Of a DNA stretch of 64,000 nt, positions 19,247 to 20,584 are shown piece after piece. Position 1 is the stretch's first letter. Each line of letters begins with the position of its first letter. The stretch lies in NCBI GenBank assembly GCA_033763455.1, contig JANRKO010000043.1:96001-160000 (forward strand). The letters are read 5' to 3'. Made by a program: the position numbers and the translations under genes. The notes under the pieces are model-generated. The model was not told the DNA's origin. It worked only from the letters and a program-made list of their open reading frames with translations, and searched no databases. The stretch is from Polyangiaceae bacterium (GTDB taxonomy: Bacteria; Myxococcota_A; Polyangia; Polyangiales; Polyangiaceae).

Positions 19247-20035
19247 ATGCGAAACGCCGCCAAAATCGCCGTGATTGTGCCGGCTTTCAACGAGGAGCGC
19301 CTCATCCGGCGGACGCTTTCTGGGATGCCTCCGTGGGTGGACGCGATTATTGTCGTAGACGATGCGAGTCAGGATCAGACGCGGCATCAGGTAGCCAAAG
19401 TCACTGACCGACGCGTGCAATTGGTAGTGCACGAACGCAACTTGGGCGTGGGGGCAGCAATCGCCACAGGGTACCGGCGAGCACTGCGGGAGAGCATGGA
19501 TGTGATGGTTGTCATGGCGGGCGACAACCAAATGGATCCGGATGACCTGGGGCTCGTAGTGGGGCCCATTTTGGATAAGCAAGCCGATTACGTGAAAGGT
19601 AATCGCTTCGTTCACCCCGAGGTTCGCCGTATGCCTTGGTTAAGGCGTCTGGGCGGGCGGTATTTGTCTGCGCTCACACGCCTCACCACTGGCCTTCCAG
19701 TTCATGATGCGCAGTGTGGCTACACGGCGCTTGGGCGGAGCATGTTGGAGCGTTTGCCGCTTGAAAGCCTATGGCCCAGCTTCGGGTACCCGAATGATCT
19801 TCTCGCGCTCTTGGCGGGGGCTGGGGCCAAGGTGGCGGAAGTGCCCGTGCGCCCGGTCTACGCTGAAGAACGGAGTGGGATCCGCGCTTGGCATGTTTTG
19901 ACAATCACGCGTGTGATTTTGAGCCGTTGGTTTGCAGCCCGTCGCCGCTCTTCACTTCACCGAAACGTGAACGTGCGTGCTCTCGTAATAAACCCAGTCG
20001 AAACCTGCGGTGACAGCGAGCCCCGCCAGGCGTGA
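19247..20035 (+). CDS. Glycosyltransferase family 2 (DPM-synthase-like)
   Basis: VIVPAFNEE, VVDDASQD, NLGVGAA, AGDNQMDP, GNRF, DAQCGY. Confidence 0.93.
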   Translation: MRNAAKIAVIVPAFNEERLIRRTLSGMPPWVDAIIVVDDASQDQTRHQVAKVTDRRVQLVVHERNLGVGAAIATGYRRALRESMDVMVVMAGDNQMDPDDLGLVVGPILDKQADYVKGNRFVHPEVRRMPWLRRLGGRYLSALTRLTTGLPVHDAQCGYTALGRSMLERLPLESLWPSFGYPNDLLALLAGAGAKVAEVPVRPVYAEERSGIRAWHVLTITRVILSRWFAARRRSSLHRNVNVRALVINPVETCGDSEPRQA

Positions 20036-20584
20036 AAGTTTGCTGTTGGAGACGTCGGAAGTGGTCACATCGGCGGCGCGTCCTGCATAGTGCAGGCTCC
20101 CCGTGCCGTGTTCCAATTGCTCGTCCCATGCCTCGGTGATACGCAGTTTGGTACCGGGCCACTCCTCGGCGACCTTCTCAGAAAGAAGGGCCAACTTCTC
20201 GCGCAAGCGCGGAGACATCACCAGATCGGCCCCCGTTCTTTCCTCGTCCTTGAAAACCCATGCCTCTCGATCGCCTCGCACCAAGCGCTTGAAGGATTCG
20301 GAACCGCGCTCGACTCGCTCCAGCAACGGCCCTGAGGCTTCTCTCTCGGACGTGGCTGGGAAAAATTGCCCAGGGAGCAAGCGGCGCTGCTGATCGCGAC
20401 GGGCCGAGAGGCTCGGACCATCACCCGAATCACAGCCGGCAGCACTCAGCCCAAAACTGGCCACAGACAGCGCAAGCAATCCCCATCCGCACAAAAGTTT
20501 CGGGCGTGGAATTGCTGGAAATACTCGCCAAAGAACGGGCATGGGTGCCAGACATCCTAGGCAGAGTGGGCCCAAGAGCGCCAA
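19952..20584 (-). CDS. Hedgehog N-terminal signalling-domain (Hh/Zn-peptidase fold) lipoprotein, no Hint domain
   Basis: [61 protein letters not shown] are Hedgehog signature motifs. Hydrophobic signal ends in AAG-C. Alternative start ATG 20542. Confidence 0.95.
   Translation of the reverse strand: [210 protein letters not shown]

Follow-up and report, generated by a model that had tools for sequence, protein, structure and literature searches.

The window analysed herein is a stretch of 64,000 nt from a Polyangiaceae bacterium (positions 96,001 to 160,000 of contig JANRKO010000043.1, assembly GCA_033763455.1), and its subject is a minus-strand gene, termed BacHh, that encodes a bacterial homologue of the N-terminal signalling domain of animal Hedgehog (Hh-N). 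The protein, of 196 to 210 residues, is an Hh-N homologue that stands alone and whose Zn centre is intact, the similarity lying far beyond chance. It appears to belong to a large and apparently undescribed clade of stand-alone BacHh lipoproteins, in which a predicted lipobox cysteine occupies the position of the N-terminal cysteine of animal Hedgehog (Hh). A first-pass annotation, made from the letters alone, had placed an animal-like Hedgehog domain in an open reading frame (ORF) that reaches back to an in-frame TTG, and this ORF is present on the minus strand with every motif that was quoted. Gene callers and the N-termini of orthologues prefer the internal ATG to the TTG as the start codon, and an AGGA sequence lies approximately 12 nt 5′ of that ATG; the coordinates of all parts are given in Table 1, with residues numbered throughout in the 210-residue frame. 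Nothing but a signal peptide and a tether stands before the domain, and the stop codon follows directly after the residues SVK, with no match to the Hint profile (PF01079) within the protein, as the annotation had also stated.

Table 1. Features of the BacHh locus and of related loci (window positions, unless a locus is named)
Feature	Position	Strand	Remarks
BacHh (Hedgehog-N) gene	19952..20542	minus	196 aa from ATG; based on the ORF, the protein-collection form P0001 and orthologue N-termini
Longer form of the ORF, from in-frame TTG at 20584	19952..20584	minus	210 aa
Signal peptide	20435..20542	minus	Basic n-region, then hydrophobic stretch ending in lipobox-like L-S-A-A-G before Cys51
Codon of Cys51, predicted lipidated residue 1 of the mature protein	20432..20434	minus	Alignment column common with the N-terminal Cys of animal Hh-N
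Flexible N-terminal tether, residues 52–68 (D-S-G-D-G-P-S-L-S...R-R)	20381..20431	minus	Low predicted local distance difference test score (pLDDT)
HH_signal / LAS-type Zn-peptidase domain, residues 57–208	19961..20416	minus	Pfam, AlphaFold, Foldseek
Active-site block (H159, H165, D172, E201, H204, H206)	19967..20110	minus	Alignment to SHH/DHH
Ca-site residues (E114, E115, D120, E151, D154, Q156)	20117..20245	minus	Sixth ligand Asp in Shh, Gln here
Upstream DUF3108 gene	20613..21887	minus	Pfam DUF3108, E=2.1e-17; stop 28–70 nt before Hh start
Convergent family-2 glycosyltransferase (GT2) ORF	19034..20035	plus	Pfam Glycos_transf_2, E=2e-22
Glycoside hydrolase family 3 (GH3) protein with PA14 domain	25207..27729	plus	Member of the genus synteny block
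3D-domain protein	28233..29141	plus	
Phospholipase D (PLD)-like gene, other-genus Polyangiaceae	L014:5205–5927, L016:2336–3031, L018:674–1360		Divergent from Hh
Partial HH_signal matches, genomes of family f51 (G095, G121, G144, G236, G281, G311, G340, G344, G358)			Frames of 550–660 aa

Membership of the Hedgehog family is apparent from every comparison made. The protein matches the Pfam profile HH_signal (PF01085) with E=3e-46 (157.5 bits against a cut-off of 22.1), its residues 57–208 corresponding to positions 5–161 of the 161 in the profile, and a six-frame search of the genome gives the same result as the protein search. When compared with the sequences of the Protein Data Bank (PDB) using phmmer, all 25 distinct matches are N-domains of animal Hedgehogs, with SHH being the best of these (1.2e-42), and BLASTP against an SHH sequence (P0132) aligns 77 identical residues out of 155 (50 %). 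The stretch from FKDEE to SVK, for which a hand alignment to SHH had suggested about 61 identities in 101 residues with one gap, displays exactly these numbers when counted on the printed midline of the alignment.

Structural prediction leads to the same family. An AlphaFold model, made with 59 relatives, has a pLDDT of 88, with block means of 89–98 across the domain and of 58–71 for the stretch that includes the tether (residues 1–50 of the 196-residue model). Foldseek comparisons of this model to the PDB return animal Hh-N structures for all of the top 38 matches, with a root-mean-square deviation of approximately 1.0 Å over 146 columns; target-normalised TM scores lie between 0.77 and 0.94, and the deviation is near 1.0 Å in most of the crystal structures. 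Profile and structure were both checks that the first-pass annotation had proposed, and both bear out its family assignment. The next structural matches, to MepA, LdcB/VanY-like enzymes and phage endolysins, follow at E-values of at least 0.02, and a match to the profile Peptidase_M15_3 (residues 162–208) stays below its cut-off (20.8 against 23.2 bits). To judge from these sequence comparisons, BacHh is related to the M15 peptidases at the level of the superfamily only.

Within the domain, alignment to SHH and DHH reveals that the Zn ligands H165, D172 and H206, the catalytic glutamate E201 and the stacking histidines H159 and H204 are all kept, in agreement with the annotation for the ligands and the glutamate. 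The roles of the equivalent residues in mouse Shh (H141, D148, H183 and E177) are described in the available portions of PMC6027127 and PMC8052667. Across the 59 aligned stand-alone forms these active-site residues do not vary, except H159, which is found in 58. For the Ca site, five of the six ligands are identical to those of Shh, the sixth being a glutamine (WDEQ in place of WDED), which is the single Asp-to-Gln replacement that had been reported from the letters. The first five positions are conserved in 57–59 of the 59 stand-alone forms, whilst the sixth is variable amongst them, the residues listed being D (21), Q (11), N (10), R (8), E (4) and H (2); WDEQ occurs in all six members of the window protein's own clade. 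As PMC6027127, in its available portion, describes full identity for the examples examined there, the mismatch was treated as a variant of the site and not as a reason for exclusion.

The region ahead of the domain is where the predicted architecture of these proteins becomes distinctive. The N-terminus is complete in 117 of the 120 short relatives examined, and in 113 of these 117 a cysteine is positioned 54–67 residues (mode 60–63) before the FKDEE-type core, with a corresponding spacing of 58–66 residues (mode 62–64) in animal Hh. In a MAFFT alignment of eight stand-alone forms with six animal Hh, the Cys51 column is invariant (14/14) and coincides with residue 1 of mature animal Hh-N; across the larger alignment it holds cysteine in 58 of 59 stand-alone forms. 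The stretch immediately before it is hydrophobic (median Kyte–Doolittle value of 1.72 over 14 residues for the 113 forms), and a lysine or arginine is found in the n-region of 88 of the 113. A PROSITE-style lipobox pattern fits 88 of the 113 stand-alone forms, the window protein included, as compared to 4 of 48 animal Hh. Since this cysteine is the sole one of the mature protein in 62 of the 113 forms, a role in disulfide formation is argued against.

Following Cys51 is an aspartate, and the tether beyond it contains a P-S-L-S..R motif that is common in the stand-alone clade. In E. coli an aspartate directly after the lipoprotein cysteine is a signal for retention in the inner membrane, a rule that is not universal and may fail in myxobacteria. 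With respect to the enzymes of lipoprotein maturation, the genome has two matches over the cut-off for Lgt and three for LspA, one of the latter being strong. Multi-domain forms of BacHh possess an unrelated linker before the domain, and a more distant subfamily from the Planctomycetes–Verrucomicrobia–Chlamydiae (PVC) group has a hydrophobic helix there. As far as these N-termini can be read, some form of membrane tether would therefore be general in the family, with the lipobox cysteine specific to the stand-alone clade.

With regard to distribution, a word-indexed protein search yields 461 relatives of 115–368 residues, and the best 120 of these 461 (nearly all of 145–250 residues) are bacterial stand-alone forms, the few with a named source being metagenome-assembled genomes (MAGs) of Polyangiaceae. 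An exhaustive search of 1.84 billion cluster representatives produces 703 matches at E≤1e-3, 456 at ≤1e-10 and 100 at ≤1e-30, the counts of 703 and 100 combining animal and bacterial forms. At the genome level the gene is patchily spread, with matches in 3 of 3 genomes of the same genus, 9 of 36 of the same family and 0 of 24 from the order's other families. Sampled evenly across the phylum, 401 genomes yielded 16 with a match, and full-length matches below 1e-40 occur only within the window's own family (G000, G215 and G240), with 2 of 29 genomes of that family having a full-length match. Of these, G215 (8.3 Mb in 8 contigs, match at 1.3e-51) has the look of a nearly finished genome. The other matches of this sample are partial and lie inside frames of 550–840 residues. 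Among these, nine genomes of the myxococcotal family f51 (Table 1) show partial HH_signal matches that run from approximately profile position 58–70 through 161 (E 1e-15 to 1e-20), and these look like a separate multi-domain subfamily of LAS peptidases. Beyond the phylum, the distant stand-alone subfamily is found in Kiritimatiellia, Lentisphaerae and Victivallales, with 28–46 % identity in the best tblastn segment amongst species-representative genomes.

Phylogenetic placement was assessed using 44 of the 120 stand-alone forms (the first six and every third thereafter), 30 long bacterial forms and 20 of the approximately 58 animal Hh, with 8 of 35 PVC loci as the outgroup; Hedgling and choanoflagellate sequences are absent from these trees. 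A quick tree, of 102 rows and 162 columns with the N-terminal columns included, recovers the animals (SH-aLRT 96) and the multi-domain forms (99) as clades, and places the animals beside one stand-alone row (89), apart from the multi-domain clade. A more careful tree was confined to 136 core columns and 101 rows, its bootstrap stopping short of full convergence (0.983). The row dropped from it, P0121 (783 residues, from metaclust), carries repeated DHH-like N-domain pieces, groups inside vertebrate DHH and looks like an artefact of assembly or prediction. In the careful tree the animals form a clade (99/97) that is joined with 28 of 29 multi-domain forms (97/90), the long multi-domain row P0145 is unplaced and the stand-alone forms become an unresolved basal grade. 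The proposition that animals branch from within the stand-alone clade is thus not robust, and was rejected, as the core-only tree joins them with the multi-domain forms; composition, with high-GC Polyangiaceae set against the rest, could contribute to that grouping.

Each tree groups the window protein with its genus-level relatives as a clade of six rows (99; 100/100), outside the multi-domain clade. On this placement it would lie apart from the rhizobial-type forms and would not be specially close to animals. The PVC loci are split from the ingroup by a long branch (100/100); were a root on that long branch correct, the stand-alone tethered form would be the older state. The first-pass annotation had described the protein as very close to metazoan Hh, and this does not hold, since its identity to animal Hh (48–51 %) is no higher than that to other bacterial Hh domains (52–58 %) and it does not stand next to the animals in either tree.

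The gene is native to this Polyangiaceae/Polyangiales genome, being neither a contaminant nor part of a chimera. The assembly (6.56 Mb in 92 contigs, 93.7 % complete and 2.8 % contaminated, with the window on contig 43) contains a single copy of HH_signal. The GC content of the gene (0.60) equals that of its flanks, and ordinary chromosomal genes surround it (RNase J, rhodanese, GT2, DUF3108, a tetratricopeptide repeat (TPR) protein and a GH3 hydrolase), in keeping with the host-like DNA that had been noted from the letters. The order of eight genes (RNase J, rhodanese, hyp198, GT2, Hh, DUF3108, TPR, GH3) is kept in 3 of 3 genomes of the genus, within which the Hh protein is 59–64 % identical and RNase J 82 %. 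Metagenome contigs from sediment and soil (three studies) span both the GT2/Hh and the Hh/DUF3108 junctions at an identity of at least 99 %, with no joints reported; the best-covering run may be the source sample of this genome. The concern over misassembly or contamination that accompanied the first-pass annotation is answered in the negative by this synteny and by these junction-bridging contigs.

The DUF3108 gene is found next to Hh only within the genus (L007/L012, L009/L011 and L010/L019), and six loci of other genera lack this adjacency; the two genes are probably co-transcribed. The DUF3108 protein has a lipobox-like stretch of its own (...L-V-C-G-C-A-G-Q...) after a long N-terminal extension and, because the adjacency holds in all same-genus genomes, the pair may constitute a two-lipoprotein operon. 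One run (X1) contains a variant with a 4-nt deletion at 20618, one codon ahead of the DUF3108 stop. On the other side, the GT2 ORF converges on the Hh gene and their 3′ ends share 84 nt (19952–20035). The arrangement recurs at the same-genus loci L011 and L012, where the GT2 and Hh matches overlap by 78 nt, so that the two genes have no room for a terminator between them. No conserved partner genes were found beyond the genus in the six other-genus loci, where PLD-like, Mfd, GAPDH and other genes occur. In three of these six, a PLD-like gene (PLDc_2, approximately 230–240 residues) lies directly upstream of Hh in divergent orientation (Table 1), and the transcription-repair factor Mfd follows in L017 and L018, a context that may represent lineage synteny and not a functional link. 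Further from the gene, the GH3 hydrolase with its PA14 domain is approximately 5 kb away, and the 3D-domain protein approximately 8 kb away; 3D domains are typical of lytic transglycosylase-like wall proteins.

What such a protein might do is suggested most directly by its relatives. Elsewhere the same domain, at 52–58 % identity, forms one polypeptide with Amidase_3, Amidase_2, Phage_lysozyme, GH25 lysozyme, glucosaminidase, VanY, Peptidase_M15_2 and PG_binding_1 modules, in hosts that include Bacillus, Rhizobium, Mesorhizobium and a flavobacterium. The window organism's own family provides a further example in P0122, a protein of 1127 residues from a Polyangiaceae MAG with two HH_signal domains together with Amidase_2, glucosaminidase, PG_binding_1 and DUF2272, which is a multi-tool peptidoglycan hydrolase. 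These fusions, when taken with the invariant catalytic centre, point to a Zn peptidase that has peptidoglycan peptides for its substrate and, in this case, would have a lipid as its tether. The favoured reading, with a probability of roughly 0.6, is accordingly that the window protein is a Sec-exported stand-alone BacHh lipoprotein and a Zn/Ca peptidoglycan peptidase of the LAS/M15A superfamily; a cell-wall peptidase was also one of the two roles that the first-pass annotation had put forward, and is the one these observations favour. Processing by Lgt and LspA would generate a mature protein that starts at a lipidated Cys51, followed by a tether of about 17 residues and the single Hh-N-fold domain with its complete Zn centre and partly kept Ca site. 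So anchored, the protein would probably face the cell wall from the membrane and most probably cleaves peptide bonds of the stem peptides or cross-links of peptidoglycan, in the manner of a D-Ala-D-Ala carboxypeptidase or endopeptidase. Its target could be the organism's own wall or, in predatory or scavenging bacteria, the wall material of other cells.

A number of observations weigh against this assignment. The peptidoglycan substrate is deduced from fusions in paralogous lineages, the neighbours of the gene itself provide no peptidoglycan link, and structural matches to solved peptidoglycan peptidases are weak (13–18 % identity, TM 0.3–0.4). No NCBIfam family matches the protein, and the available portions of PMC6027127 and PMC8052667 report enzymatic activity for no BacHh. 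Phage relatives are likewise absent, with no PHROGs family and no tblastn match across 50,697 phage records, so that within those libraries BacHh does not figure as an endolysin-type module; a link to phage endolysins was rejected on this basis. As to the predicted lipid anchor, the strict lipobox [LVI][ASTVI][GAS]C is matched by only 24 of the 113 clade members and not by the window protein, which has an alanine at −3, and Lnt is not demonstrated in the genome, where the best match reaches 113.8 bits against a cut-off of 132.9. Finally, the glutamine at the sixth Ca ligand in the window's clade means that regulation by Ca may differ from that of Shh. The best Lnt-like locus, L058 (G000:C6:529288–532809), is itself unusual in containing two overlapping ORFs in different frames (1339–2307 and 2168–2806, minus strand), with a CN_hydrolase match in the downstream one only; it could be the product of an assembly frameshift or a nitrilase-family gene other than Lnt.

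Of the other explanations, the one with the most substance, although held at only about one chance in five, is that the protein is an offensive or scavenging lytic lipoprotein, sited on the outer membrane, the cell surface or vesicles, and degrading the peptidoglycan of prey or detritus. Myxobacteria are predators, and the spread of the gene resembles that of an accessory function (present in 9 of 36 family genomes, in 0 of 24 from the order's other families, and full-length in 2 of 29). The Hh protein also evolves faster than its neighbours within the genus. In addition, 'feeding or scavenging' is suggested for rhizobial BacHh clusters in the part of PMC8052667 that was available. This is countered by the lack of any immunity-like partner, secretion gene or toxin gene conserved nearby, and by the aspartate after the cysteine which, by the E. 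coli rule, would hold the protein at the inner membrane. A Zn peptidase with a substrate other than peptidoglycan, for instance some other (glyco)protein of the envelope or matrix, or an exopolysaccharide with peptide links, is somewhat less probable than a lytic factor. It would accommodate both the genus-level neighbours, a glycosyltransferase and a probable DUF3108 lipoprotein in place of wall enzymes, and the weak similarity to solved peptidoglycan peptidases, and it parallels the proposal, within the accessible text of PMC8052667, that Shh acts on proteoglycans. The recurrent fusions are, however, all to peptidoglycan-directed modules, and the GT2/DUF3108 neighbourhood is not conserved beyond the genus.

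Far less probable than either is a role in signalling between the cells of a multicellular bacterium, namely as a Hedgehog-like ligand with a receptor on neighbouring cells, as the first-pass annotation had proposed. Such a role might be read into the whole Hh-N fold, the anchoring cysteine at the animal position and the basic stretch that follows it, and lipoproteins can be exchanged between myxobacterial cells. Searches for Patched (PF02460), the sterol-sensing domain (PF12349) and Hint (PF01079) gave no match anywhere in the 93.7 %-complete genome, however, and an invariant catalytic machinery is what would be expected of an enzyme. Furthermore, the domain is present in Bacillus, rhizobia and flavobacteria, which are not multicellular, fused to wall hydrolases; most relatives of the window organism are without the gene; and the segment corresponding to the Patched-binding peptide is not significantly similar to that of animals (3 of 48 and 0 of 115 above the 95th percentile of shuffles). 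Additionally, a Shh/BacHh chimera fails to replace Shh in extracellular matrix (ECM) release, according to the available portion of PMC8052667. That the gene is an artefact, whether through contamination with animal DNA, a chimera in the contig or a very recent acquisition from an animal, can for practical purposes be dismissed. Only the high identity to animal Hh would speak for it, and it is contradicted by a GC content equal to that of the flanks, a bacterial signal peptide with lipobox, the eight-gene synteny in three independently assembled genomes of the genus, junction-bridging contigs from other runs, a six-member bacterial clade (100/100), the 703 representative clusters at E≤1e-3 and the bacterial identity of the best 120 of the 461 short relatives. 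The peptidoglycan peptidase thus stands as the preferred reading.

The position of the cysteine invites comparison with animal Hh, in which the N-terminal Cys is the palmitoylated residue (literature cited in PMC6027127, in its available portion). When the mature protein (Cys51–Lys210) is used as a phmmer query, many animal Hh align from its first residue, and DHH from residue 23; multi-domain bacterial forms align just from residues 9–25 onward. A hidden Markov model (HMM) was built from the first ~20 mature residues of the 113 stand-alone forms, and with it the N-termini of 48 animal Hh score a median of 1.15 bits against 0.5 for 960 shuffles, with 3 of the 48 exceeding the 95th percentile of these; none of 115 further animal Hh does so. 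The sole sequence above every shuffle is Hh of Nematostella (11.3 bits, the highest shuffle reaching 8.5), the segment of which following the cysteine is P-S-L-S and then basic residues, as in the bacterial consensus. In a search aimed at further cnidarian sequences, the best 120 matches were almost all bilaterian Hh, and P0356, a 62 % identical sequence from that search, lacks the P-S-L-S motif. An initial claim that a Cardin–Weintraub/Patched-binding peptide is conserved was dropped, as the model scores animal segments no better than shuffles. In these alignments the coincidence in Cys position is real, with homology of the peptide that follows it not demonstrable.

A tentative evolutionary proposal, considered possible but unlikely, is that the N-palmitoylated Cys of animals is an inherited lipoprotein +1 Cys, and that stand-alone BacHh of the Polyangiaceae type is the closest surviving model of the bacterial ancestor from which the whole of mature Hh-N would descend, the membrane-anchoring N-terminus included. 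Under this proposal the chemistry of an N-acylated cysteine would have been kept, with the enzyme swapped from Lgt/Lnt to Hhat, and would not be an invention of animals; the multi-domain BacHh of rhizobia and Bacillus would then be a derived branch that lost its N-terminus by fusion. Because N-terminal homology has weak sequence evidence behind it, and the choice of columns affects where the animals fall in the tree, this is offered as a hypothesis and not as a result.

Hh-N in bacteria has been in print since 2018, and a myxobacterial BacHh is also already published. As far as the accessible parts of these sources go, Roelink 2018 (PMC6027127) introduced 'bacHh', with >50 % identity to ~145 residues of ShhN and identical Zn ligands, Ca ligands and E177, from roughly a dozen species, Rhizobium and Bradyrhizobium among them. 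Jagers & Roelink 2021 (PMC8052667), over the portions to hand, treat BacHh as M15A-type predicted peptidoglycan peptidases, with those of Mesorhizobium and Bradyrhizobium sitting among lysozyme, amidase and M23 genes, and describe the N-terminal Ptch1/heparan-binding part of ShhN as not conserved in BacHh. Their supplement, in the part seen, includes a 'Myxococcales bacterium' BacHh cut to a core of ~105 residues, the nearest matches of which in the present set (P0089 and P0106) are stand-alone lipobox forms. The word 'lipoprotein' is absent from the available texts of both papers, and no literature linking Hh-N to bacterial lipoproteins was found in a search whose coverage left out most subscription journals; the work of the Aravind group that was turned up concerns, in its accessible part, only the origins of Hint and SuFu. 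By the yardstick that the first-pass annotation had itself set, these publications reduce the novelty, as bacterial Hh was known, a Myxococcales member included, although the gene stands outside the rhizobial and multi-domain clade.

The new element appears to be the architecture, i.e. a large, environmentally common clade of stand-alone, putatively lipid-anchored forms whose mature chain begins at the same point as animal Hh-N. Such proteins could serve as a simple experimental system for the bond that is cut by the Zn centre, for the role of the Ca site and for whether N-terminal lipidation predates animals. For myxobacterial biology, they would add an accessory envelope peptidase of patchy distribution.

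Viewed against known systems, the protein shares with the BacHh of Roelink the same domain, an identity to ShhN of at least ~50 %, the Zn ligands, the glutamate, the stacking histidines, most Ca ligands and the SVK end. It differs from the published examples, insofar as the sources cover these, in being stand-alone, in its lipobox cysteine and in aligning with animal Hh from mature residue 1, and lies outside the clade of the rhizobial, Bacillus and flavobacterial multi-domain forms in both trees. With animal Hh-N there is an identity of 48–53 %, a common fold and metal centre, a signal peptide directly before the cysteine and a similar spacing from Cys to core. Unlike animal Hh, however, the window protein is without Hint/Hog, and hence without addition of cholesterol, and has glutamine as the sixth Ca ligand; its first ~20 mature residues are not significantly similar to the palmitoylated, Patched-binding peptide of animals, save that of Nematostella. 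The peptidases of LAS/MEROPS M15 (VanY/LdcB, MepA and Ply500-type endolysins) have in common with it the Zn motif (H-x6-D and H-x-H) and central sheet, their structural matches being weak yet consistent, but the peptidoglycan peptidases of M15 lack the Hh-type Ca site according to the available text of PMC8052667. The PVC-group proteins of Hh fold are likewise small, stand-alone and membrane-anchored with the same domain, yet are only 28–46 % identical and are anchored by a hydrophobic helix in place of a lipobox.

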